Below are positions 23,857 to 54,422 of a stretch of 64,000 bases of DNA, piece after piece. This DNA comes from a virus. Lineage: Duplodnaviria > Caudoviricetes. The DNA lies in IMG/VR virus record IMGVR_UViG_3300011616_000006, positions 32,001 through 96,000 of that record; one strand, written 5' to 3'. The stretch's first letter is position 1. Each line of letters starts with the position of its first letter. The notes under the pieces were generated by a model. It was not told where the DNA came from, made no database searches, and saw only the letters and a program-made list of their open reading frames with translations. The position numbers and the translations under genes were made by a program.

Positions 23857-23922
23857 TTTCTATCGTCTCCTGTATTCATTATCTTGTTTTAAATTTATGT
23901 TATCAATGATAATGGAAGCAAT

Positions 23923-23962
23923 AAAAAAGCAGACCCAAGTCCACAATGTGACTCTGATCTGC
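23923..23962 (-). terminator. Attenuator terminator in the mef leader (distal to promoter)
   Basis: GCAGATCAGAGTC...GACTTGGGTCTGC-TTTTTT. Confidence 0.7.
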
Positions 23963-24056
23963 ATACATACAATATAGAAGCAGGCTAAAGAAAGGTATAG
24001 TCAAAATGACCATTCCTTACCGTAACTAATGCTCAATACTGCGAAAATACGCACAA

Positions 24057-24085
24057 CAAAAAAGCCTATCATCATGGATAGATTT
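24057..24085 (-). terminator. Attenuator terminator just after the leader peptide
   Basis: CTATC-CATGAT-GATAG-GCTTTTTT. Confidence 0.55.
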
Positions 24086-24103
24086 TACTTTTTTATTGCC
24101 CGA

Positions 24104-24130
24104 TTATCTCAAACGCATTGATGCTGTCAC
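24104..24130 (-). CDS. mefL: Macrolide-sensing leader peptide MTASMRLR
   Basis: GTG ACA GCA TCA ATG CGT TTG AGA TAA with GGAGG SD; same peptide as the known mef(E) leader, with the RLR arrest motif. Confidence 0.92.
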   Translation of the reverse strand: MTASMRLR

Positions 24131-30803: not shown

Positions 30804-30877
30804 CGGAGTATGGCGTAGTTTGGTAGCGCGCTCGGCTGGGGGCCGAGAGGTCGCAGGTTCAAATCCTGTTACTCCGA
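30804..30877 (+). tRNA. tRNA-Pro(GGG), CCA not encoded; integration site of prophage 2
   Basis: Acceptor CGGAGTA/TACTCCG, anticodon arm CTCGG-CTGGGGG-CCGAG, T arm GCAGG-TTCAAAT-CCTGT. Confidence 0.97.
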
Positions 30878-30939: not shown

Positions 30940-32199
30940 TTACTTTTCTGTCAGGATAGAGCTTTCTATCGTATTGTTTGCGCCTACAAACTGGGACATA
31001 GTAATCTCTTTAGTAACCATGCCTACCATAAGTTTCTTTTCTTCTATATTAGTAATGTCATAGGTGTAGTATTGCTCATTAACCTCCTCGGTATGACCTA
31101 AGAGGGCACTAACAACAGTTGATGATACACCATTACATTTTAATTTAGATGAAAACGTCCTGCGGTAAGCATGAATGCTCTTCACCGGAATTCCAAGCTG
31201 TAAACACTTATTCTTCGCACACGAAGATATCACTGATGCTCTCACACGGCCTTCCTCATTCTGAAATATGAATTCCCCCAGATATCCATATTCCTTTTCA
31301 ATTTCCCTTACTTTTATGAGTAGGGCTTTTGTTTCGTCCGTTAGAGGCATAAACCTTTTCTTCTCATTCTTTGTCTCCCCAATAAAGCATTCTTTGGTTT
31401 CCCGGATATACTTTTCAGAGTGACTTATTTCAATTATTCCATTTTGTATATCTGCCCACCGCAATGCCGCTATCTCACTCACTCTCAGTCCTGTGAGACT
31501 TGCAAAATGTACTGCGTAAGTTGGAATATAATCGGGATGATCTTGATAGTCTTTGGCGAATCGTTGAAATAGAAGTCGGTATTGATCTTGAGAAACGGTT
31601 CTTTCCTCAGCTGTCTTGACTATTTTCTTGCAGAATGGATAAAAAGATTTTGTTTCAATGTTTTCGAATGGATTTTCCTTTATTAACTTGTTTATCTTCG
31701 CGCTCTTCAATGTGTTTCGAATATATCCACACAATGTTTTACACGCTTTAGGGGATAGCTTCAACTCTTTAATAAGCTTGATAATGAAGGCACTAATGTT
31801 TTCTTCGTTCATTTCTGAAAGTGGCATTATCTCAAAATCTCGCCCTTTGAAAAAACGTTTGTAATCACTTCGATACTTATCATGAGTATTAGTTGTGGAG
31901 AAACGAATTGAGTATACATCAAACCATCGCTTATAAGCTTCCTTAAAGCTAATTCGATCACTATGATTACTTTTTTGCTTATAGTAATCAATAATCACTT
32001 TATTTATCTTTGCTTCGGTTTTAAGTTTTTTTAATTTCCTCCCCTTTTCTTCGTCTGGTAAATACGTTCTCCAATAGCCATCATTTCCCTCCCACACTTC
32101 GTATGGATGATTCTCTAAATATTCTTTGTCTTTCATAGCTTCAATATCATTCTGTACATCGTCAAGGTTAATTTTACCATTAGCGATCAAGAAACTCAA
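30940..32199 (-). CDS. Tyrosine integrase (possible ATA start at 32232)
   Basis: TGLRVSE, K, HAYRR, LLGH and Y catalytic set. Confidence 0.95.
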   Translation of the reverse strand: MSFLIANGKINLDDVQNDIEAMKDKEYLENHPYEVWEGNDGYWRTYLPDEEKGRKLKKLKTEAKINKVIIDYYKQKSNHSDRISFKEAYKRWFDVYSIRFSTTNTHDKYRSDYKRFFKGRDFEIMPLSEMNEENISAFIIKLIKELKLSPKACKTLCGYIRNTLKSAKINKLIKENPFENIETKSFYPFCKKIVKTAEERTVSQDQYRLLFQRFAKDYQDHPDYIPTYAVHFASLTGLRVSEIAALRWADIQNGIIEISHSEKYIRETKECFIGETKNEKKRFMPLTDETKALLIKVREIEKEYGYLGEFIFQNEEGRVRASVISSCAKNKCLQLGIPVKSIHAYRRTFSSKLKCNGVSSTVVSALLGHTEEVNEQYYTYDITNIEEKKLMVGMVTKEITMSQFVGANNTIESSILTEK

Positions 32200-40683: not shown

Positions 40684-41142
40684 CTATTTATTGCCCTCCC
40701 CATAAAAATCTCTGATATAGTCCATTGCCTTCCGCAATCCGTCTCTTCCTGTTTCTACCCGGTCACACTGTTCATACTTCCAAGGATGGATTTTGATGCT
40801 CAATTCTTTTTTATTTAATTCTTCATCAATAAATCCTATCACCGGCTTTCCATTTAAATATGCATACAATATTTCGTCATTTGTTCCAATTGACTGCCGG
40901 ACATTATTTAAGTTGACCAGAATAACATCTGCCGACTGAACTTTTCTCAGATCAAATCTCATTACTTCTTTTTCTGTTTTATGATAGTTCTTACCATACT
41001 CATAAAAATCTGTAGGAGAAATAACCACAAATCCATCATCAATGAAGTTAAAATATTCCTTCACTTTATTACGCCATCCCTCCGCAATAGTTGTTCCTTC
41101 ATGCATTTCCATAGCCCCAGCAGTATAAATAATTTTACTCAT
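40684..41142 (-). CDS. Nucleoside 2-deoxyribosyltransferase-like / nucleotide N-hydrolase
   Basis: IYTAG...WR...D...V..ADVILV...SIGT..EI..A...GKPV. Confidence 0.75.
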   Translation of the reverse strand: MSKIIYTAGAMEMHEGTTIAEGWRNKVKEYFNFIDDGFVVISPTDFYEYGKNYHKTEKEVMRFDLRKVQSADVILVNLNNVRQSIGTNDEILYAYLNGKPVIGFIDEELNKKELSIKIHPWKYEQCDRVETGRDGLRKAMDYIRDFYGEGNK

Positions 41143-41702
41143 TTTACATTCTCCTTTATAAGTGTAATAATCTTTTCAACCACCTGATCAATATCACTGC
41201 CAACATTGTTATAGACAATCTTATCAGCCACTAATTCAAACCCCTTAAAATCTATTTTGTCAGCATCAAATCTACGTTTGGCTTCTTTTTGATCATCGCA
41301 TCTCATCTTCTGGCGTTTTATAACAGTCTTATCATTTGAAAATAGATAAATGACAAAGATATTATCATCGCAATTCCTTTTAAGATTACTTACACCCTCT
41401 GGTGTAAGAATCGTAATTGTATTATTGCTGGCGTTTTTAATATCATCTGCTGCTGAACCATAAAACCAATCTTCACTCTGACCATTGACTTCAGTGTGGT
41501 AAACTCTATGTTCTGCAAAGAACCCCTCATTGATCTTATCTTTAAATTCTTCTGCAGATATAAAATGGTATTCAATATCCTGCGTCTCTCCCGACCGCAT
41601 TGGTCGGGATGTATAGGTTACTAATTTCTGAAATCCACGCTTCACCAATTCTCTTTGTACTGTATCCTTGCCTGTACACGAGCGTCCCGACAGAACAATC
41701 AT
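41139..41702 (-). CDS. Guanylate kinase-like NMP kinase
   Basis: GRSCTGKD, TYTSRPMRSGE...YHF. Confidence 0.88.
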   Translation of the reverse strand: MIVLSGRSCTGKDTVQRELVKRGFQKLVTYTSRPMRSGETQDIEYHFISAEEFKDKINEGFFAEHRVYHTEVNGQSEDWFYGSAADDIKNASNNTITILTPEGVSNLKRNCDDNIFVIYLFSNDKTVIKRQKMRCDDQKEAKRRFDADKIDFKGFELVADKIVYNNVGSDIDQVVEKIITLIKENVK

Positions 41703-43943: not shown

Positions 43944-44633
43944 TCAAGCCCACTGATTCGCAATAGCCTTTGCGACTCCTATATATGTTTTGCTACGAAT
44001 CTTTGCCGTTTCTGGGGAGTTCCACGCCAGAACTTTCCCTTTATCATTTTTTGTATTAAACCCTTTGTATTTTCCATCTTTTATGTATTGATTTTTCCAC
44101 CCATCTTTCGGCTTTTCAACAACTTTTGTAGGTGTCAGCAGCGGTAGATTCTTCAACCACAAACATGTTGACTTTGTCTCTTCATGCCCAAACATCCACG
44201 GCTGAATTATTTGGTCTGGCTTACGATAAACTGTTGACATCACCCCTACGGGATTTTCAATCGCTATTCTCTCACAATCCGCATTGACGAATGAATTGAA
44301 GAATTCAATTGCCTCTTCTCTGTCTTTATGTCGCTGAATAGCTGCATCTCCATATCGATCAATATTGAACCAACGATTACCTGCGACTGTAAGATATGTA
44401 CAAGGTGGAAATGCAATAAGAATATCCCATTTTCCGTTTATTGTATGATTTTTACCATCAACTGTAGTGAACTGACAATTGCCATTCAGCAGAGGTAAAA
44501 CATTGGTTTGAATGTGCCACTCTGGGTAGCCACCAGAACATTGCTCCAAATCGCAAGAATATGCTTCATGCCCCAGACTTCTTAGCTCTTTTGTTACAGC
44601 TTGACTCTCTTCACATGCAACTAAAATCTTCAA
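43944..44633 (-). CDS. Short C5 DNA methyltransferase-like protein
   Basis: ILVACEES, AFPPCTYL, IENPVG, QPWMFGH, RSKTY.GVA.A.A.QW. Confidence 0.75.
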   Translation of the reverse strand: MKILVACEESQAVTKELRSLGHEAYSCDLEQCSGGYPEWHIQTNVLPLLNGNCQFTTVDGKNHTINGKWDILIAFPPCTYLTVAGNRWFNIDRYGDAAIQRHKDREEAIEFFNSFVNADCERIAIENPVGVMSTVYRKPDQIIQPWMFGHEETKSTCLWLKNLPLLTPTKVVEKPKDGWKNQYIKDGKYKGFNTKNDKGKVLAWNSPETAKIRSKTYIGVAKAIANQWA

Positions 44634-44642
44634 TTTATTACC

Positions 44643-44691
44643 AGGAGTAAAGAACGTTCTTTTGTTGTCCGGACAAAACCTCTTTATCCCT
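44643..44691 (-). promoter_or_regulatory. Leader hairpin with palindromic apex, copy A
   Basis: AGGGATAAAGA...TTGTCCGGACAA...TCTTTACTCCT. Confidence 0.65.
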
Positions 44692-44727
44692 TCTTTTAAT
44701 CAGAATCCATTATTTATAAAATCAACT

Positions 44728-45952
44728 TCACTTCGTATATACTCTCTGCATCAATTCTTCCCGTCGCGAAATGGGTTTCCCGCATACTTGACAGATTCGT
44801 TTGCTTTTACGACATGTGCCGCACAAATCAGCCCCATTTACGTAATTAAATACTTCTATTCCGCAGTATTTACATTTGATTAGTTTTATACCCTTTGCAA
44901 TAGGACAACACACATGGACTGCTACAACTATCACCTCCGTCTTTTCAATCAAACAAAAGTCGCATTTTATTTAACCTTTACTTCCGCATTCCCAAATAAC
45001 AAGTTGCTCCACACGCAGGGCATTTAATGTGTTTTGAGCCATTACCTTTTGCTTTCAAATTTTGTTTTATGTCACAATTAGAATACTGCAAAAGCGATTT
45101 ACATTCCTGACATTCAATCTTGCGATTAATCATACTACCCAATTCTAATACTGTAACCATTATTCCCTCCAAATCAAATCTCTATTTCATATATGTCCAA
45201 CAATCTTGTGTCCGTTAAACTTAGTGTTACATCGAGGGCATTTCTTATAAATCGTAACGTTAAAACAATCTTCTTCTGGTAAAAAGCTTTTCAACTCAAG
45301 AATGAGCCCACAATATTCACACATTGAGCTTATTGCCGAGCAATCATCATTTTTGGGATATGTCCACACCAATTATCTGTACTACACTTTCTATAGTTGG
45401 TTGAGAATCAATTAGTTCTAAACTAACCCCAAATGGTTTATCCCAATTTGTAATATCTGCTTCTCTCTTTAATGCATCCGCGTCAATCAGTCTTCCCATT
45501 ACAAATCCCTTCTCATATTGTTTTTCAATTATCATAACCATCTTCTTTGAGTGTCATAACAATCTTCTCGATCTCATTCATCACCTCAAGAAGCTGTGAT
45601 TTATTCATACAACACAAACTGACCGTGTCCGGAATCGCCATGGTGTATGCTCCAACTTCTTTAGCAATCACATCAATCTTTTTATAGTGGTCGATCAATT
45701 CCCGGCAGCTGACATTTTCACTATAAGATAAAACGACAATATCATTTGGCTTTGGCTGTAAAATACTCAAATCAACATCATTCATCTTTGCTCCTTCTTT
45801 AACTCATCATATTGTACTTCCAATTCCTGAACCTTTTTACTATGTAGAGCTTTCACTTTTATTGCTACTTCATTACCACAGTATTCAGCTATTATTTTCA
45901 CCATATCATCGAAGGTTCGCACCGGCCACCACTGACCATTTATGTAGATAAT
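44728..45952 (-). CDS. Six small genes, several zinc-ribbon (44728-44952, 44978-45160, 45187-45372, 45347-~45500, 45525-45785, 45782-45952)
   Basis: CxxC pairs; RLIDADAL motif in one; starts uncertain. Confidence 0.6.
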
Positions 45953-45985
45953 ACATAATCACCCCCTTTGAAAGTGCTGTTTCAT

Positions 45986-47929
45986 TTACATCATTTCCAG
46001 TAATTGTGCTTCTGAAATAATTGGTACTCCTAACTCTTTTGCTTTTTTATTCTTGCCAGTAGTTGATGTAATGTCGTTGTTTACTAAATAAGATGTTTTG
46101 GCCGACACGGAACCACTCACTTTACCACCAAGAACCTCAATCTTCGATTTGGCTTCATCCCGATTTTCAAAGCTATCCAACTTACCCGTAATAACGAAAG
46201 TCATCCCATCCAACGTTGTTCCCTTTGCCATCTGCACATTTTCAAATTCGAATATATCCATCAAATTAGGAAGCCAGGTGTGATTGCGCTGGAGATAAGT
46301 CCACATTGAATTCTGCATTGACGTTCCAAAATCTGATAAAGTTGAGAAATCAAAACCGCTACACCATGAATCATAAAATTTCACTTCATTCTCAAAGGAA
46401 CTGGCAATCGCTTTGCTGGCGGATCGCCCAATAAGAGGAATTGATAACGAATAAATAAATCTGTCCAAAGTAGTGTTCTTACTCATCATTAAACTCTCCA
46501 GCAATTTTTCAACTGAACGTTTTCCAAATCGATCACTTCTACTCCATTCATCTTTATATTGATCAAGGTTGTATAAATCGATAAATGATTTCACCCATCC
46601 CCGGTCAACCAGAAATTCTATCGTGGCCTCACTCATTCCATCAATATTCAGAGCATTCTTAGAACAGAAATGAGTTAGTTTGCCAACTAATTTTCCTTTG
46701 CAGAATTCATTTGTGCAGTGTAACACTTCTGTATCTATATCTTTTTCCACTTTAGTTGCCTCACTGCACACTGGACATACGCCAGGGATGCGAACCGCAT
46801 TACTTCTGGTGTTATTTTCCTTCACCTGCGGTATGATCTGATTTGCCTTATAGACCGATATCTCATCTCCAATGCCTAATTCCAACTCTTTGAGAATGCT
46901 CACATTATGAAGGGATGCTCGGCTTACATCTGTTCCATCGATATTCACTGTGTCAAAAATTGCAACTGGTGTAAGAGATCCGGTCTTCCCCATTGACCAT
47001 TCAATGTCTCGCAACGTAGTTAGATGTTCTTCATCGTAAAATTTGAACGCCAATGAATGTCTTGGATGATGTCCTGTAGACCCAAGCGATTGACCATAAA
47101 TCATATCGTCATACGAAATAACCAAACCATCAATTGGATAACCTCTGTCTTTGGCCTCATCTTTCAGTGATTCAATCAGTCTTGTTATTTGCTGAACATC
47201 ATCGAATGGACATGAAATAAAGGGAACAACATCAAATCCCAATTTTTCTAAAGCATCGAGATTGGTACTCATCTGTCTTCCAAAATTCTTAGCCGGAACC
47301 TTCCAAGCAATACACCGAATCTTTCTTTCAGCAGCTACACGGTTATCAAGCTGCCTGACAGAACCGCTGACAAGATTTCTCGGATTCTTATATTTTTCTT
47401 CATCGGTTAAAGCCTCATTAATCACTGCAAAATCCTCATATGTAATGATTGCTTCTGCTTCAATCTCCAGCCGTTCATTATATCCGATCACAAGGGGTAT
47501 ATTAATAAATTCTCTGGCGTTGTGAGTAACCAGTTCTCCAACTTCTCCGTTTCCTCTAGTCTCAGCTTGAATTAATCTACCGCCATCATATGTCAAGAGA
47601 ATAGTTAACCCATCAAGTTTATGCATTAGCAAGCATGGTTCAGATGCTGCAAGCTTAAGCAAGTCATCAACCGACTTCGTTTTACTCAGGCTGAGAAGTG
47701 GGTGACTATGCTTCACTTTCTCCAATTTTGATACAACTTCATATCCTACAGTTTGAGTAGGGGAACCTGAAATAATAATCCCTGTCTCCCTCTCAAGTTC
47801 CTCTAACTGGTTAAATAGTATATCATACGTTTCGTCTGAAATAACTGAATTTGAGTTATTGTAATACTCATTGCGATAATAATTCAGTTTTCTTACTAGC
47901 CCCTTCATCTCGTTAATATCTTTTACCAT
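45986..47929 (-). CDS. ligA: NAD-dependent DNA ligase
   Basis: HPLLSL.K, KLDG, TRGNG, NPRN, zinc finger, BRCT. Confidence 0.96.
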   Translation of the reverse strand: MVKDINEMKGLVRKLNYYRNEYYNNSNSVISDETYDILFNQLEELERETGIIISGSPTQTVGYEVVSKLEKVKHSHPLLSLSKTKSVDDLLKLAASEPCLLMHKLDGLTILLTYDGGRLIQAETRGNGEVGELVTHNAREFINIPLVIGYNERLEIEAEAIITYEDFAVINEALTDEEKYKNPRNLVSGSVRQLDNRVAAERKIRCIAWKVPAKNFGRQMSTNLDALEKLGFDVVPFISCPFDDVQQITRLIESLKDEAKDRGYPIDGLVISYDDMIYGQSLGSTGHHPRHSLAFKFYDEEHLTTLRDIEWSMGKTGSLTPVAIFDTVNIDGTDVSRASLHNVSILKELELGIGDEISVYKANQIIPQVKENNTRSNAVRIPGVCPVCSEATKVEKDIDTEVLHCTNEFCKGKLVGKLTHFCSKNALNIDGMSEATIEFLVDRGWVKSFIDLYNLDQYKDEWSRSDRFGKRSVEKLLESLMMSKNTTLDRFIYSLSIPLIGRSASKAIASSFENEVKFYDSWCSGFDFSTLSDFGTSMQNSMWTYLQRNHTWLPNLMDIFEFENVQMAKGTTLDGMTFVITGKLDSFENRDEAKSKIEVLGGKVSGSVSAKTSYLVNNDITSTTGKNKKAKELGVPIISEAQLLEMM

Positions 47930-47930
47930 T

Positions 47931-48479
47931 CTACACACATCCCTTCATTAATTTGGACATCAATACGCCATGACATACCTCATATATCATCTGGCCCATA
48001 TTTTCTTTTTTCACAAAATTCATATGAAAATTTGAAATTCTTTGCACCCCCAGAATCCTTCTTAAAAAAGCCACTTCATTATACTCAGATTGATAATTGT
48101 GTGTGATAATATCATCAATCTGACAATCTTCAATAAAGAGATAACAGTTTTGTATATTAATCATTCTGTTCAATTCCTTAAAAAATCGTTCATCGTGGGC
48201 CTTGATATTTCCAGCTATTTCATCCAATCCGTTTTTTCGTTCTATGCACAATTCATCTGTAAAATATGTATCCACCAAAAAGCCCAGTTCTGGACATCTC
48301 TCTATCATGAAACAATAATCACCCGTTTTCAGTTTTCGTTTCTTACAACGAATACTTTTCTTATCAAAATACTCAAGTATATGCTGATTGGATTTTTCTG
48401 CGCTATCATGAATAATGACCATATGTTTAAGTAATTCCTTTAGTTGTTTTTCAGTATAATAATTCTTGATCTTCTTCAT
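47931..48479 (-). CDS. ERCC4-domain nuclease
   Basis: HDSAE...LKTGDY...IERK. Confidence 0.88.
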   Translation of the reverse strand: MKKIKNYYTEKQLKELLKHMVIIHDSAEKSNQHILEYFDKKSIRCKKRKLKTGDYCFMIERCPELGFLVDTYFTDELCIERKNGLDEIAGNIKAHDERFFKELNRMINIQNCYLFIEDCQIDDIITHNYQSEYNEVAFLRRILGVQRISNFHMNFVKKENMGQMIYEVCHGVLMSKLMKGCV

Positions 48480-51400
48480 TCTCCGTTCTTTTTACTTTAT
48501 ATTTCTGCAACCAAAACTCAAACTTATCTGGAACATCTGCATAAATCTTCTTCCCAGTCTGTGGATTTATCTCCCCCGTAGGCTCTTTTTTATGTTTCTT
48601 TTCACATGATGAAATGATTAATATATCCATTTCTTCAAACGGATGTCGGTTGAATGCATTTGTCCACATTTTGAGATCCCTTGTTTTACCTGAATATATC
48701 TCATATAGTTTGATATTAGTTATGGATTTTAAAACCTCCAGCCCCGACACATAGTAAAGTAATTTACTTGCATTTGGCTCTGTAGTTGACAATATTCCGA
48801 GAATACGATGTTCATTATCCAGTTTATCTTTAAGAGACAGTGGCTTGTACTCAACCCCCTTGATCAGCTCCTCTAAAAGTCCAGTATTGTTTAATTGGTT
48901 GTAAAGAGTTTTTGTTTCATTTCCGTATTTTTTCACAATATCCTCTGCTATTCCGTTCTCTGTAATCTTCTTTTTCGACAGTTGTTTTGCCGCGATCAAC
49001 AGATCATAGTACTTTTTAGTGGCTAAAAGAGTATTGACATCACCAAAATTTTTAAAGTACTCAATCCTAATCAGGTCTTCAACTCTTGATGAATTTACTG
49101 AAGTACTTTCAATGGCGCTCAAAATTTCAACAAATGACGAATATTCGTATTTCCCAATCTCATATAATTCGCTTACAACTTTAATACCAAAATTTTTCAC
49201 ACTAGACAGACTTGGATAGATCACTTTAGCAGCCCTGTCAATAGTAACGCGCCTGTTGTCCTTTCCGAACTCATATCCGCCAAGCCTCACACTATAATGT
49301 TTAATGCATTCTTTAACAAGAGAATCGATCTTATCTTTTTTTCCTTTGTCTTGATAGTGATTGATTGCAACCTCATAAAATGTAAACGGATAATGCCCTT
49401 TCACCCAAGCTTGATAAGCACTGTCCCCGCCCATTGAATAAGCATGTGGTGAGTTAAACGCATAGAATGCAGAGTCTTCAATGATCTTCCAGACCGTCTC
49501 AAAGTTATTTACATTTCCGATTTCTTTTCTCCAGGATTTAATAAGCTCTTTCTTTAGCTCTGCCAGTTTCTCCGGATTATCCTTATATTCTTTCTTTGAT
49601 ATCGACTTGATCACACTATAAGTATTGTCCATCGCCATGCCAAGGAATGATAAAACTTTCATTATTGATTCTTGATATAACATAAAATGTGCTGTATCTT
49701 TTAACAGCTCGTTGATACGATCTTCTCCTGTCGAATAAGGTTGTCTGTCCAGGAATATCTTTAAAGAAGATGCAAACCCTGGCCTAATCGCAGCAATAAA
49801 GGCAGATAGTTCGGCAAGTGACTTCGGCTTATATTTCATTACTTTGGGAATTGTTTTAATTTGTTCACACTGGTTTATACAGCAGGTTATTCCTTTCTCA
49901 TAAATATCCCAAGTCTTGTTATCTTCTTTAATCATTTCTTTCAGTTCCTCAAATGATGGAACCTCCATTCCTAAACTTTTAAAAAGTTTGTATGTAAGAT
50001 GAACACTGTCTACAATAAGGAAATCGTCTTTCAAATAACCAAATTTATCGAGATATTTGCCTTCTATACAGGCCACCAACGTACGTTCCTTTGTGGTTTC
50101 TGATATTGCAGTAATTAGGCCTATTTCTCTTCTAATATCTCCATCAAAAAGAATATAACCACACGGATGTTTTATAAGATTTATCACTATGCTTTGATAT
50201 TCTTTGCTTTCTTTGTATAAAGAAAGATATTCTTGAGGTATGAAATCATCTGCTACAATTAAATCTCTGGCATCCTCATCAGCATATTTTTTCGCTTTTT
50301 CAAATTCATCAAGATATTTTGAGATCTGCAGCGAATCATGTGCAGAAACATCATTTGCTCCGGCATAAAGCTGCCATGCCGACTTTTCTTTCAGTTTTCC
50401 AACCGCCATCAATGGATAACATCCATGTTCACCAAGCAATTTCTTGCCAGACTTTTCAAATGGTTCTTGCTCGGCAATATTGAGATCAATATCAGGCATT
50501 TGTCCAGCTAATACACGTTCTTTGGTTAAAAATCTTTCAGGATATATTGGTATATCAGAATTGAACCTGTCTACAGTTGTAAAACCAAGCAGCCTATTTG
50601 TGATAAATGAAGCAGAACTCCCTCTTGATGTTGTAGTTAATATTCCTCCTTCTTCAGTTATTGCATTATGTACTAATCTTTGATTTGTTAGGAAATAGTC
50701 AACCACACCTGATTCAGTTACTTGTTTCGCCTCATAACGGACACCATTGATTTTATCCTTGGATTTTAAAGGCTCTTTTCTGTATGCCTGGTTTAAAATG
50801 TTATGATAGAGCTTTACCCTTTCCCCATATGATTTATCCTTGTAAATATTGGGGATTTTAAATGATTTATCAAGCTTTATATCTTCACACTCATCAACAA
50901 AGACATTGGTATTCATGATCGCTGTTAAAATTTGTCTGTCAGATAACACGCCCTGTTCTTGGAACCGTCTTATCAAAGTTGTGGTGTCAGGATAATCCAT
51001 ATACCACCCAGCCTCTTCCGGATAAGATACTTTTTTGTATTTTAATATCTGGTCTCTCTTCACACGGCCTGATTCTCCAATATAATGACTATCTAATCCA
51101 GCAATTATTTGAATTCCATATTTTTCAGACATCTTGATAATTCTTTTATTTAGTTCTTTTTGTTTGCTGGTATTATTGGCTTGTAATTCAAGAAAAAAAT
51201 TGTCGCCAAAATATTTCCATACTTTCAACCAAATCTCTTCCGCATCATCATAATTCCATCCGGCTATACATGCGCTCGTAACAATTATATTGTCTCTAGG
51301 AATGTTTAGGAGAAGCTCTAAATCTATACGTGGACGATAATAATATCCATCAATATTTGCCATAGACAATATATAGTTGATATCCGCTCTCCCCGTTTTG

Positions 51401-51756
51401 TTCTTAGCAACAATAACCATATGACAATTGGTTTTGTCTTTTTCATGTCTGTCTTTCACCCAATAGGCTTCTGTTGAGTGCCTATACTTAAGATTTTCTT
51501 TTTCTGCAACATCATAAACAAAGAAATGATTGCCTTGCGATCCGTGTTCTCCAGAATACAAACATTTCGCATTCAACTCTTTGACCCTCTTTACATATTC
51601 ACTTAACAATTCTCCGCTGTCAGCGATATACGTATTTGAAAAGTCCTTATGACAGTGGTAGTCTTCTAAATAGAGATTTTGGGCATAGTCAGCTATTTCA
51701 TATGGAAACTTAAACTTTAATTTTGGAATAATTTCCTCTATTAACTCTTGATACAA
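48451..51756 (-). CDS. Family C DNA polymerase (DnaE-like, PHP domain)
   Basis: YHCH PHP motif, RGSSAS, PDID, HPCG, YAFNSPHA. Confidence 0.95.
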   Translation of the reverse strand: MYQELIEEIIPKLKFKFPYEIADYAQNLYLEDYHCHKDFSNTYIADSGELLSEYVKRVKELNAKCLYSGEHGSQGNHFFVYDVAEKENLKYRHSTEAYWVKDRHEKDKTNCHMVIVAKNKTGRADINYILSMANIDGYYYRPRIDLELLLNIPRDNIIVTSACIAGWNYDDAEEIWLKVWKYFGDNFFLELQANNTSKQKELNKRIIKMSEKYGIQIIAGLDSHYIGESGRVKRDQILKYKKVSYPEEAGWYMDYPDTTTLIRRFQEQGVLSDRQILTAIMNTNVFVDECEDIKLDKSFKIPNIYKDKSYGERVKLYHNILNQAYRKEPLKSKDKINGVRYEAKQVTESGVVDYFLTNQRLVHNAITEEGGILTTTSRGSSASFITNRLLGFTTVDRFNSDIPIYPERFLTKERVLAGQMPDIDLNIAEQEPFEKSGKKLLGEHGCYPLMAVGKLKEKSAWQLYAGANDVSAHDSLQISKYLDEFEKAKKYADEDARDLIVADDFIPQEYLSLYKESKEYQSIVINLIKHPCGYILFDGDIRREIGLITAISETTKERTLVACIEGKYLDKFGYLKDDFLIVDSVHLTYKLFKSLGMEVPSFEELKEMIKEDNKTWDIYEKGITCCINQCEQIKTIPKVMKYKPKSLAELSAFIAAIRPGFASSLKIFLDRQPYSTGEDRINELLKDTAHFMLYQESIMKVLSFLGMAMDNTYSVIKSISKKEYKDNPEKLAELKKELIKSWRKEIGNVNNFETVWKIIEDSAFYAFNSPHAYSMGGDSAYQAWVKGHYPFTFYEVAINHYQDKGKKDKIDSLVKECIKHYSVRLGGYEFGKDNRRVTIDRAAKVIYPSLSSVKNFGIKVVSELYEIGKYEYSSFVEILSAIESTSVNSSRVEDLIRIEYFKNFGDVNTLLATKKYYDLLIAAKQLSKKKITENGIAEDIVKKYGNETKTLYNQLNNTGLLEELIKGVEYKPLSLKDKLDNEHRILGILSTTEPNASKLLYYVSGLEVLKSITNIKLYEIYSGKTRDLKMWTNAFNRHPFEEMDILIISSCEKKHKKEPTGEINPQTGKKIYADVPDKFEFWLQKYKVKRTENEEDQELLY

Positions 51757-53361
51757 TTAATCACCACCTATCCATATTTTGTTACAAACGGCCTTTAATA
51801 CAAATTTTTTTCCTAAAAATCCACTATCTAAGGTGCAAACACAGGAAACAATATCTCCCATAATCGCCGCATCTTCATACACCTCAAACGAGCCGCTGTA
51901 ATTCCATTTGATGACAAGTAGATAGTTATTTGGTTGTACAACCAAATGCTTAAAATTACTCATGTTGCTTATTCCATAATCTTCAATATTGGTAATATAT
52001 ACCTGTACTGGCTTGAACTTTTCACCCGCTACTTTATCAATTAGTTTTATTTGTTCTATTAATCCTCTTGTGATATCGGATACATCCAATTGAATATCTG
52101 CAGCAAGTTCTGTAATATCAGGTTCTTGCATTGCAAGACTTTCTTCTATATACAATGAGAAATCATCAAATAGATTCTTATCAATCTCTATACCACTTGC
52201 TAATTCATGTCCGTTGGCCTCTGCAAAACTGCTGTCGTTGCATATCTTTCTAAAATCGCTTACGCCAATCGCTCTCATAGAACCACATAATTTATCACCA
52301 CAATCTTTTAAAACAAGTATTGGTCGCTGATATTGCTCAAGTAATTTGCCAGCAATCAGTCCAGACACACCATATTCACTTTCTATGATGACGGGAATCA
52401 TCTTTTTTTCTTTTTGCTTCTCACATTGCATCAATACTGAGGGAAACAATCTTTCAACCTCATAGTTTTGACGTTCTCGACAGGCTACAAGGGCCTTTTT
52501 ATATTTTAAAATCTCTTTATTATCATCCGACAAAAATAAATTCATTGCGGCCTCATTTTCATTCATACGGCAAGAAGCGTTAATCAGCGGCGCGATACTG
52601 AATGATATGGCTGTTGAGTTAAAATCAAAACTTCCAATAATCTTCTTCACAGCTGGATTATAAATAGTTTTCAGACCTTCATTTACAATATAGCGATTTT
52701 CCATGACAGTCATATCCATCATATCTGCTATAATTCCACATGCTGCCAGATCAATTAATTCATCTGCGTAGTCTGTCAGTTCTTGTTCATCTATATATTT
52801 GCAGAATTTCCATACCACACCAGAACCAGATAATTGGGGATTTTCATATCCCAGCTGGGATGATACCAGTGTTATATATTCCGAATAAGGAACTTTATCA
52901 TCAACAGCATGATGATCCAATACAATTACTTCTATCCCCATTTCTTTCAGTTTTTCATATTGTGAAGTATTTTTATCAAGGCTATCAACAATTATAAGAA
53001 GATCAACATCTGCAAACCGACTGATATCTTGATTAATCAATCCATGAGCTTTACCATTATTAATAAATGTATGAACCTTCTTTTTATCTGTTATGTTCCA
53101 CAAATATCTTGCCGCAATAGTCCCGGCAGAGATGCCATCAACATCAACATCATAGAGAACACCTATTTCTTTATTCAAATGGCTAAACAAGATTTTATAG
53201 GCCTTGTCAATATCTTTCAAAGAATCCAAAGGCAGTAAATCCGCTTCGATTGGATTCAGAAATCGGTCTATATCTTCTACACCCCTTTGTTTTAAAATGA
53301 CTTCAAATATTTCACTTTCACACATTCCGCGACAATCATTTAACACATTACATTTATTCAT
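51757..53361 (-). CDS. RecJ-like DHH exonuclease
   Basis: YDVDVDG, LDHH, IADMM, GSMR, GHELASG. Confidence 0.92.
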   Translation of the reverse strand: MNKCNVLNDCRGMCESEIFEVILKQRGVEDIDRFLNPIEADLLPLDSLKDIDKAYKILFSHLNKEIGVLYDVDVDGISAGTIAARYLWNITDKKKVHTFINNGKAHGLINQDISRFADVDLLIIVDSLDKNTSQYEKLKEMGIEVIVLDHHAVDDKVPYSEYITLVSSQLGYENPQLSGSGVVWKFCKYIDEQELTDYADELIDLAACGIIADMMDMTVMENRYIVNEGLKTIYNPAVKKIIGSFDFNSTAISFSIAPLINASCRMNENEAAMNLFLSDDNKEILKYKKALVACRERQNYEVERLFPSVLMQCEKQKEKKMIPVIIESEYGVSGLIAGKLLEQYQRPILVLKDCGDKLCGSMRAIGVSDFRKICNDSSFAEANGHELASGIEIDKNLFDDFSLYIEESLAMQEPDITELAADIQLDVSDITRGLIEQIKLIDKVAGEKFKPVQVYITNIEDYGISNMSNFKHLVVQPNNYLLVIKWNYSGSFEVYEDAAIMGDIVSCVCTLDSGFLGKKFVLKAVCNKIWIGGD

Positions 53362-53369
53362 TAATCGTT

Positions 53370-53413
53370 AGAGTAAAGATATCTTTTCGCTGCGCAGCAA
53401 ACCCCCTTACTCC
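53370..53413 (-). promoter_or_regulatory. Leader hairpin with palindromic apex, copy B
   Basis: GGAGTAAGGG...GCTGCGCAGC...TCTTTACTCT. Confidence 0.65.
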
Positions 53414-53417
53414 TCTC

Positions 53418-54422
53418 TTAAATATACTTTATTTCTTCTTGTAAAATCCGTTTCAACTCTTCGCCCCCCAGGTCTGATGCAGAAATTTTGTTGCCATAAT
53501 TCTTGTCAAAATTGTCCCAATAACCAACATCCATTTCACTAAATCTGGAATAGCTCTTTAAGACCATGATGTTTCTTTCAATATTGTCATACTTATAACC
53601 AACATCATGCATGAATATTACTCGTCTAGGATTCAACTCCATTATCATCTGCGCCTGTTTAGAACTCAACGAACCACTTCCTAACCCTATTGCATATCTT
53701 ATTCCATAGGAAAAACATTGCATGGGCGATTTTTCCGCTTCAAATATCAAAACTGTATCACCCTGCATATACTTATAGTTCTGCGAATATCCATACAGTT
53801 GTTGGGACATCTGACACGGGAGAAGATAATAATACTTTTGATCTCCATCTAAAACATCGTAATTACATCGTGCCTTTATCCCAACGAGCTGTCCGAGCTG
53901 ATCCCTAATTGGAATTACAATAGTCTGAGATCTTCGGTCGTAGCAAATACCGAAATATTTTTGAGCTGAAAGTGAAATGTTGTCTCTAAGAAATCTTAAG
54001 TTCCCACAGTTTTCATAGTCCTCTAATAGTGAATCATCGTATGTATTAATTGTTGATTTCTTGTATTTTCTTACTTTGTCATAGATGCCACCAAAAATCC
54101 CTCTGTTGGTTTCAAAAAAATCATAATAATCTTCAATTCCAAGTATTGATCTTATGGTTCTCATCACATCAGAAAACTCTACGCTTCTCTGGGTGCAAAT
54201 AAAGCTTATCAATTCCTTATATTCATTTCTTGCCCAGTCTTTAACATACAGAAACTCGTTGTCATCAAGATGGATCGTAATCGATTTAGGGCTTGATGAT
54301 TCACTACGGCCAAACTGAATATATTTATTCCGAATGATTATGTTCGCATATCCAAAGTTAGCTAAAACCTGTCTTATTCTTTCAGGTTCTTTTAGTAACT
54401 CCTTTTTTATTTCTTTTAGCAC
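53418..54422 (-). CDS. DnaG-like TOPRIM primase
   Basis: IPIRD..G.LVGIK.R, LYG, IFEAEKS, FMHD. Confidence 0.85.
   Translation of the reverse strand: MLKEIKKELLKEPERIRQVLANFGYANIIIRNKYIQFGRSESSSPKSITIHLDDNEFLYVKDWARNEYKELISFICTQRSVEFSDVMRTIRSILGIEDYYDFFETNRGIFGGIYDKVRKYKKSTINTYDDSLLEDYENCGNLRFLRDNISLSAQKYFGICYDRRSQTIVIPIRDQLGQLVGIKARCNYDVLDGDQKYYYLLPCQMSQQLYGYSQNYKYMQGDTVLIFEAEKSPMQCFSYGIRYAIGLGSGSLSSKQAQMIMELNPRRVIFMHDVGYKYDNIERNIMVLKSYSRFSEMDVGYWDNFDKNYGNKISASDLGGEELKRILQEEIKYI

Follow-up and report, generated by a model that had tools for sequence, protein, structure and literature searches.

An RNA leader of ~50 bases, which occurs twice in a 64,000-nt stretch of Caudoviricetes DNA (positions 32,001 to 96,000 of IMG/VR record IMGVR_UViG_3300011616_000006; hereafter, the window), belongs to a real and widespread family carried by phages of gut Lachnospiraceae. 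Members of the family have three covarying helices, two of them formed by palindromes of highly variable sequence, and are tied to DNA-modification genes. We consider the leader to be a translational control element, or split ribosome-binding site, of the gene that follows it, and we assign this reading a probability of roughly 0.55. Phage methyltransferases and related DNA-modifying enzymes decide survival of host restriction and are often toxic when over-made; the leader would be a compact, strongly covarying control module specific to DNA-modification genes, in phages that are abundant in the human gut and the rumen.

A covarying leader family and its genes

An exact pattern of the leader scaffold returned 82 stretches from IMG/VR, ~74 of them with the full scaffold, and from these exact-pattern copies we built a covariance model. 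The model detected divergent copies in the same loci, in loci fetched via the methyltransferase, and in 4 of 150 other genera of the host's family. In all, we identified 71 distinct instances from IMG/VR gut-phage contigs and Lachnospiraceae prophages, with one or two copies per phage in whole phage records (~40 kb). All named genomes that carry the element are from Lachnospiraceae: the cultured strains Roseburia porci MUC/MUC-530-WT-4D, Velocimicrobium porci WCA-693-APC-MOT-I and Anaerotaenia torta DSM 100431, together with several metagenome-assembled genomes. Judged by the ~74 IMG/VR copies and by covariance-model scores of 45–60 bits, the resemblance between the two window copies exceeds chance. 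When a looser pattern was used in IMG/VR, nearly all matches were due to chance. A short 3' pattern gave only chance matches in 400 related genomes, at a rate equal to that of a reversed-pattern control, which rules out a genome-wide repeat.

No Rfam 15 family matched the element at gathering thresholds or at E ≤ 10, and permissive scans with the second window copy and with a copy typical of the consensus yielded either no match or noise (E 5–9); a known RNA family is thereby ruled out. A scan of the whole window found only sRNA_1300 and a tRNA, both away from the elements. The initial annotation of the window, made from the sequence alone, had proposed an unrecognised cis-acting structured element and had called for this Rfam check; with no match, and with covariation in all helices, the proposal holds. 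The family is apparently uncatalogued. A 2023 catalogue lists ~10,000 candidate RNAs from viruses, some of which are said to precede adenine methyltransferase genes, and the leader motif may be included there (PMC10690425).

From 5' to 3', the element consists of AGAAA, the 5' strand of helix H1 (GGAGU, often followed by AA), the sequence RAGAGGUU, palindrome P1 (8–14 nt, with a GC-rich core), 0–3 nt, palindrome P2 (10–14 nt, usually AAA-core-UUU), the 3' strand of H1 ((UU)ACUCC), which directly adjoins P2, and an A-rich spacer that leads to the start codon. RAGAGGUU, between the H1 5' strand and P1, is a conserved single strand (junction J1/2) and holds a second Shine–Dalgarno (SD)-like sequence, SD2. 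All three helices, H1, P1 and P2, show compensatory changes. Across 43 distinct sequences, 96.7% of cells are paired, as compared to 42–55% with partners slid; both sides have changed in 13 of 17 pairs, and none of 500 shuffles attained the observed values. Compensated variants of H1 include GGAGC:GCUCC, AGGGAAA:UUUCCCU, GGAGCC:GGCUCC and UUGGAG:CUCCAA. P2 is constant in the main subfamily and covaries in divergent copies, with CAGCUG, CUGCAG, AGCGCU, CCAUGG, CUAUAG, AUGCAU and UCAUGA cores. G:U pairs occupy 14 cells of H1 (9 + 5), and the closing pair of P1 is U:G in 20 cases and U:A in 21. Since G:U is tolerated in H1 and at the base of P1, with A.C nearly absent, these are pairs of the sense-strand RNA rather than a symmetry of duplex DNA. 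The polarity of H1 is constant, in that the purine-rich, SD-like strand is always the 5' one and is never flipped, and the 3' strand is anti-SD-like in every instance. The junction strand appears to be conserved for itself, since RAGAGG is kept even where the P2 sequence changes. Two divergent second copies, each within a phage that has another copy (L198:691–732 and L203:5606–5653, both minus strand), show which parts of the scaffold are dispensable; the L198 copy has no junction strand, and its P2 does not overlap H1.

The two window copies, which we call E1 and E2, lie with all their parts on the minus strand, as do all neighbouring genes. Each sequence occurs once in the window and nowhere else in the 6.55-Mb genome, giving two copies in total. 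E1 (44643–44694; covariance model 45 bits, E 5e-9) is the leader of a phrog_757 DNA methyltransferase gene (43944–44633, minus strand; TTG start at 44633, 229 aa, PHROG E 2e-65). Its H1 joins the SD-like strand GGGAU (44686–44690) to the anti-SD-like strand ACUCC (44644–44648), 10 nt 5' of the start codon, through G:C, G:C, G:U, A.C and U:A. Between the H1 5' strand and the palindromes lies J1/2 (AAAGAGGUU, 44677–44685), which holds the second SD-like core and, in the family, is conserved and uncompensated; P1 is a 12-nt palindrome centred on CCGG (44665–44676), and P2, which adjoins the H1 3' strand, is a 14-nt palindrome centred on ACGT (44649–44662). E2 (53369–53418; 60 bits, E 3e-13) lies between a primase gene and a gene for a RecJ-like exonuclease (51757–53361, minus strand; phrog_2484 E 1e-107, Pfam DHH). 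It comprises the H1 5' strand GGAGU (53409–53413), J1/2 (AAGGGGGUUU, 53399–53408), a 10-nt P1 centred on GCGC (53389–53398), a 12-nt P2 centred on ATAT (53375–53386) and the H1 3' strand ACUCU (53370–53374), 8 nt 5' of the ATG, which pairs with one G:U. Hence, the leaders described in the initial annotation are both present before the methyltransferase-like gene and recJ, with one scaffold and different perfect palindromes, and the SD-like strand that it placed in a stem ~50 nt from the start is real in both copies. P2, a second perfect palindrome in each copy, had been overlooked.

E2 fills the 56-nt gap between primase and recJ (primase stop codon at 53418–53420, recJ ATG at 53361). In RecJ relatives with ~60% identity, which come from very large phage contigs (IMG/VR, 100–216 kb), the primase stop overlaps the recJ start, with no spacer and no element, and E2 therefore represents an addition at an otherwise conserved junction. 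The prophage replication module around the two copies encodes a Sak4-like protein, DnaB, primase, RecJ, Pol III alpha, an ERCC4 nuclease, NAD ligase, small ORFs and the methyltransferase.

Across the family, nearly every copy precedes a DNA-modification gene, so that gene context agrees with, and is more specific than, the suggestion in the initial annotation that the leaders control DNA-acting enzymes. PAPS-reductase-like genes (Pfam PAPS_reduct or phrog_424) make up approximately two thirds of the downstream genes. The others encode C5 cytosine methyltransferases, an MT-A70 enzyme, N6_N4 methyltransferases, phrog_757 methyltransferases, SNF2 helicase-methyltransferase fusions, one SNF2 helicase, two double-zinc-ribbon proteins and, at E2, RecJ. 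In an unbiased genome search, all four new copies preceded methyltransferase or SNF2-type genes. The leader is not co-conserved with any one downstream gene: only ~8 of 80 loci with a phrog_757 methyltransferase carry it, and the RecJ relatives described above do not. The downstream proteins have unrelated folds, and we conclude that the element is tied to DNA-modification function and not to one protein family. It can also serve as a sequence flag for unannotated anti-restriction genes, examples being the downstream genes of zinc-ribbon, SNF2 and RecJ type. In a Roseburia porci prophage (L372:5852–7480, plus strand), the leader heads a small modification operon, in which a PAPS-reductase-like gene is followed by a 102-aa ORF and a C5 methyltransferase gene.

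Proposed role in translation initiation

The elements lie in short intergenic gaps of operons, often starting 2–6 nt after the upstream stop codon. They always read in the same direction as the gene that follows and keep a constant distance from its start codon. No sigma-70 promoter or intrinsic terminator adjoins either window copy, which rules out that the elements are themselves promoters or terminators. Since no such site flanks them and they start so close after an upstream stop, we take the elements to be internal parts of polycistronic mRNAs. Upstream ORFs are diverse across loci. In one phage lineage (L185, L207, L218, L232, L240, L241 and L250), a family of Cys-rich ORFs of 81–95 aa (C-terminus ...GWNACLDKILK) ends 2 nt before the leader. 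Pfam found no helix-turn-helix (HTH) or ribbon-helix-helix (RHH) gene among the window neighbours or among 10 downstream neighbours of seven loci; thus, a dedicated regulator was found neither upstream nor downstream in the loci examined.

The H1 3' strand ends 8–11 nt before the ATG in 42 of 53 distinct spacer types. None of the 53 has GGAG or GAGG at positions −18 to −4, as compared to 23 of 31 other ORFs of this prophage under the same generous rule, and we found an SD at a normal distance from the start codon in no family member. The usual place of the SD is held by the anti-SD-like strand of H1, so that the gene has no SD of its own, and the spacer is A-rich and SD-less. Instead, SD-like sequences lie in the 5' half of the element, ~45–55 nt upstream of the start codon. 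SD1 (AGAAAGGAG) is a 9-nt complement of the 3' tail of Firmicute 16S rRNA, with a predicted duplex energy of −11.9 kcal/mol, calculated with the general Firmicute tail, as the assembly does not contain the 16S 3' end of the host; for SD2 (GAGGU in the junction), the predicted duplex with the same general tail has −7.0 kcal/mol. With no local SD, and with SDs only upstream, the genes would depend on a distant SD that is brought near by the fold alone.

We propose that each element is transcribed as part of a polycistronic phage mRNA, in which it would serve as the 5' leader of the next gene and govern translation initiation there. H1 would pair the SD-like GGAGU with the anti-SD-like ACUCC, placed where a normal SD would be, 8–11 nt before the start. 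SD1, which is partly inside H1, and SD2 (RAGAGGU) would come near the start codon only with H1 closed and the P1/P2 insert looped out. The leader could then be described as a split ribosome-binding site with a built-in lock, in which folding of the insert would set the amount of DNA-modifying enzyme. Candidate triggers are a factor, ribosomes that translate the preceding gene, an alternative pairing that uses the 3' half of P2, and contacts of P1/P2 with another molecule of the same RNA. That the leader acts on translation, whether it raises or lowers it, and what sets it off are the parts of this reading that we infer.

Several observations weigh against translational control of this kind. 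The predicted energy optimum in the main subfamily is a long single hairpin (−15.8 kcal/mol) and not the three-helix fold (−7.2 kcal/mol). In this hairpin the junction strand pairs with the 3' half of P2, giving ~20 stacked pairs with internal loops. As singly folded molecules, P1 and P2 are predicted to gain next to nothing, with hairpin energies of 0 to −0.7 kcal/mol. Palindromy that extends to the centre is needed by no monomer fold, and a simple model of translational control therefore leaves the most striking feature of the leader unexplained. The geometry is also unlike that of the split sites of phage T4, since closure of H1, which would move the SD towards the start, also pairs part of SD1. 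Finally, a TTG stands 8–9 nt after SD1 in 64 of 71 instances and is absent from 7, and it could matter.

We rejected the long hairpin as a family-wide structure that sequesters both SDs, since its pairs beyond 7 bp are uncompensated: where P2 has changed, the junction strand has stayed as it was, which leaves 6, 4 and 15 sequences unpaired at these pairs, and it is the partner within P2 that has changed to match. For the main subfamily, folding predictions make both folds possible, and a switch between the long hairpin and the three-helix fold is conceivable. With regard to the TTG, the initial annotation had described a mini-ORF that stops 4–6 nt before the gene and had offered an upstream ORF (uORF)-coupled switch. 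The stops do fall 4 and 6 nt before the genes in the window copies; in the family, by contrast, the uORF has from 3 to more than 30 codons in any frame, and its stop, if there is one, can fall at any position between −26 and +52. Since uORF length, frame and stop vary so freely, the tidy stops in the window are incidental. The G of the TTG is the first base of P1, and in four P1 types it is replaced together with its partner. We therefore discarded uORF coupling as a family trait: the TTG is lost in these four types, in which its G changes as part of the P1 stem, and the uORF is otherwise unconstrained.

Hypervariable palindromes and rival explanations

The palindromes are hypervariable, with at least 13 P1 cores, at least 15 P2 cores and 33 combinations. 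They are Watson–Crick perfect up to the two central bases, which cannot pair inside one hairpin, and the centre is self-complementary in all P1 types and in 15 of 16 P2 types. Palindromy is thus kept in homologues even though the sequence varies, as the initial annotation had implied. The single exceptional centre is UG, found in two unrelated instances; by way of wobble pairing it links UA to CG, and two such RNAs in a self-duplex would have adjacent G:U pairs at the centre. The predicted energies of P1 and P2 as self-duplexes are −11 to −21 kcal/mol. Replacing the P1 centre with GAAA is predicted to leave the monomer fold at −17.0 kcal/mol and to reduce the gain from dimerization from −20.7 to −2.8 kcal/mol; since the monomer stays intact, palindromy of the centre does nothing for it. 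Five phages have two copies each, and in every one of them the copies differ from each other in P1 as well as in P2. The spacing between P1 and P2 centres ranges from 12 to 15 nt, which rules out a fixed spacing. These features favour RNA–RNA pairing between two molecules or recognition of duplex DNA by a dimer.

We also asked about restriction sites. The 6-mers of the palindrome cores are neither depleted nor enriched in five phage genomes, and hence there is no signal of avoidance or enrichment of the cores as restriction sites in these genomes. One phage (G404, a 38.8-kb contig made up of L482 and L483) has 4 GGCC sites where 37 are expected and 25 GATC sites where 128 are expected, and in its leader a P1 centred on CCGG replaces the common GGCC-centred P1. 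This GGCC-avoiding phage suggests that host restriction may drive the turnover of palindromes.

A possible but doubtful alternative, raised as a kissing-loop dimer in the initial annotation and indirectly supported by the palindromic centres, is that P1 and P2 pair across two molecules of the leader RNA, either in kissing loops or in extended duplexes. Under this model translation would follow transcript concentration, that is, phage genome copy number or time after induction. Self-pairing could also be the trigger of the translational control we propose. It would account for palindromy at the central bases, the UG centre is compatible with it by way of tandem G:U wobbles, and the predicted energies of self-duplexes, the effect of the GAAA centre and the differing boxes of two-copy phages all point the same way. 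On the other hand, nearest-neighbour models give any hairpin an energy gain as an extended dimer, one P2 (in L131) has an A.C mismatch, and five two-copy phages are too few to establish orthogonality. Moreover, to our knowledge control by dimerization of mRNA leaders has no precedent in bacteria or phages, which counts against it here. If the palindromes did act by RNA–RNA self-pairing, bacterial mRNAs would be shown to use a regulatory principle that is new for them, a dosage or timing switch in which each copy in a genome has an orthogonal "address" of its own. We regard as unlikely that P1 and P2 are instead dyad sites for a dimeric protein, in an operator that works at the DNA level or at both DNA and RNA levels and possibly senses the methylation state. 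Possible binders are a controller protein, a regulator of the Aca kind, and a restriction enzyme or methyltransferase that has the palindrome as its site. Such an operator would fit the strictly Watson–Crick internal positions of P1 and P2, unlike those of H1, the hypervariability of the palindromes, which resembles that of restriction-modification specificities, the DNA-modification function of the controlled genes, and the precedent of Aca1 and Aca2, for which promoter inverted repeats and leader RNA hairpins are bound (PMC13551039). It is opposed by the lack of a conserved HTH or RHH gene on either side, by the diversity of the cores that precede one methyltransferase family, phrog_757 (at least 7 for P1 and at least 11 for P2), and by the presence of the same P1 before unrelated genes within one lineage. 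The DNA sensor of restriction or methylation sites suggested in the initial annotation would be of this kind, and it is weakened by the RNA-type G:U pairs and by this diversity of palindromes before a single methyltransferase family. The variable centre spacing, the unremarkable counts of core 6-mers and the missing promoter at both window copies argue in the same direction, and the U:G at the base of P1 and the UG centre are RNA features.

An element of RNA processing or stability, such as a site for RNase III or another nuclease, or a small ribozyme, could free the message of the modification gene and leave it with a short A-rich leader. The position in short operon gaps close after a stop codon would suit such a role, as would the A-rich, SD-less spacer, and the long-hairpin conformer, with its stacked pairs and internal loops, recalls by analogy the RNase III sites of phage T7. 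We think it quite improbable, because no Rfam ribozyme or processing family matches, the pairing of the long hairpin is uncompensated beyond 7 bp, and one conserved junction strand is too little for a catalytic core of known type. Least probable of all is a portable DNA cassette or recombination joint, a mobile module that moves modification genes or itself and has no regulatory role. The addition of E2 at a junction that overlaps in RecJ relatives could be understood in this way, and so could the presence of the element in different phage types before unrelated genes. Strict orientation and fixed distance to start codons, RNA-type covariation, the low copy number (1–2 per phage, 2 in the 6.55-Mb genome), the absence of a visible target-site duplication at E1 or E2 and the absence of copies beyond chance in 400 related genomes all speak against a cassette.

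Relation to known systems

Split (discontinuous) ribosome-binding sites were reportedly described by Nivinskas et al. in 1999 for genes 38 and 25 of phage T4. There, a single simple hairpin has the unpaired SD at its foot, and folding leaves a spacing of ~5 nt. The leader resembles these sites in that it is found before phage genes, its SDs are distant in linear sequence, and covarying structure (H1, P1 and P2) intervenes between SD and start. Set beside a free SD at the hairpin foot with a folded spacing of about 5–9 nt, the leader gives a mixed picture: the GGAG of SD1 is within H1, leaving AGAAA alone free, and SD2 is free at the far end of H1, which itself ends 8–11 nt before the ATG. It differs further in that the SD core is a strand of the closing helix, a second SD lies in the junction, the insert has two hypervariable perfect palindromes, and the element recurs as a family whose genes belong to a single functional class. 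In the com-mom system of phage Mu, a leader hairpin likewise holds back translation of a phage DNA-modification gene; the hairpin contains the SD and start of mom, and the zinc-finger activator Com is encoded just upstream. Our leader does not enclose the SD or start of its gene in a hairpin, and we saw no Com-like gene upstream.

SAM-III (SMK box) and SAM-VI riboswitches are, like the leader, small junction RNAs with an SD/anti-SD helix in the fold, and they often precede SAM-using enzymes. In the riboswitches, the SD strand adjoins the start, whereas in the leader the anti-SD-like strand does; moreover, the leader genes include enzymes that do not use SAM (PAPS-reductase-like proteins and RecJ), the helix tips vary freely, and only SD-like bases are conserved. 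With no Rfam match and an anti-SD-like 3' strand in every instance, we rejected these riboswitches. The dimerization loops of retroviral RNAs (HIV-1 DIS and the GACG tetraloops of MoMuLV) share with the palindromes self-complementary apical sequences that vary between lineages and yet remain palindromic. These loops act in packaging of RNA-virus genomes, whereas for the leader dimerization is a prediction; we know of nothing similar described for bacterial or phage mRNA leaders. The SAS and ESAS motifs of cluster K mycobacteriophages, which Pope et al. are said to have reported in 2011, are also repeated phage motifs that lie shortly ahead of start codons and are accompanied by inverted repeats. 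SAS number ~10–20 per genome, precede many kinds of gene and include a local SD; by contrast, the leader occurs once or twice per genome, is found before modification genes only, and removes the local SD.

The closest published concept is that of Aca-controlled leaders, of which the defining parts are absent from the leader element. A passage in PMC13551039, which cites Birkholz et al. 2024, describes Aca1 and Aca2 as binding promoter inverted repeats and RNA hairpins in the leaders of anti-defence operons. PAPS reductases and Mom-like genes are among the Aca-regulated anti-defence cargo, and Aca proteins bind the leader hairpins (PMC13551039). In both systems, phage anti-defence genes have 5' leaders that contain short RNA motifs with inverted repeats, PAPS-reductase-like or modification genes are found in the operons, and in both the symmetry could serve duplex DNA and RNA hairpin alike. 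The leader element differs in having no associated aca-type HTH or RHH gene, in not lying beside a promoter, and in its three-helix structure with SD/anti-SD pairing. It also has no fixed operator, since the palindrome sequence is not conserved. Accordingly, we found no sign of Aca-type membership, that is, no adjacent aca gene, no conserved operator among the hypervariable cores and no promoter-like flank at either window copy.

Three further identities were considered and set aside. A hammerhead or other small self-cleaving ribozyme has no support from Rfam, and RAGAGGUU is the sole conserved junction strand. A C-box operator of restriction-modification systems does not fit the variable dyad sequence, and we found no controller-protein gene in the neighbours. 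An integron attC site or MITE-like repeat is at odds with the two copies in the genome, the one or two copies per phage, and the constant position 5' of a gene and on its strand.

Elsewhere in the window, the prophage contains a guanylate-kinase-like gene (41139–41702, minus strand; Pfam E 1e-14). A tRNA-Pro(GGG) gene (30804–30877, plus strand) lies at the border where the minus-strand block of phage-like genes starts and is a possible prophage attachment site. Outside the prophage part, the region 23920–24127 (minus strand) is a strong match to RF02862, "Enterococcus sRNA 1300" (127 bits, as compared to a gathering threshold of 48.8).

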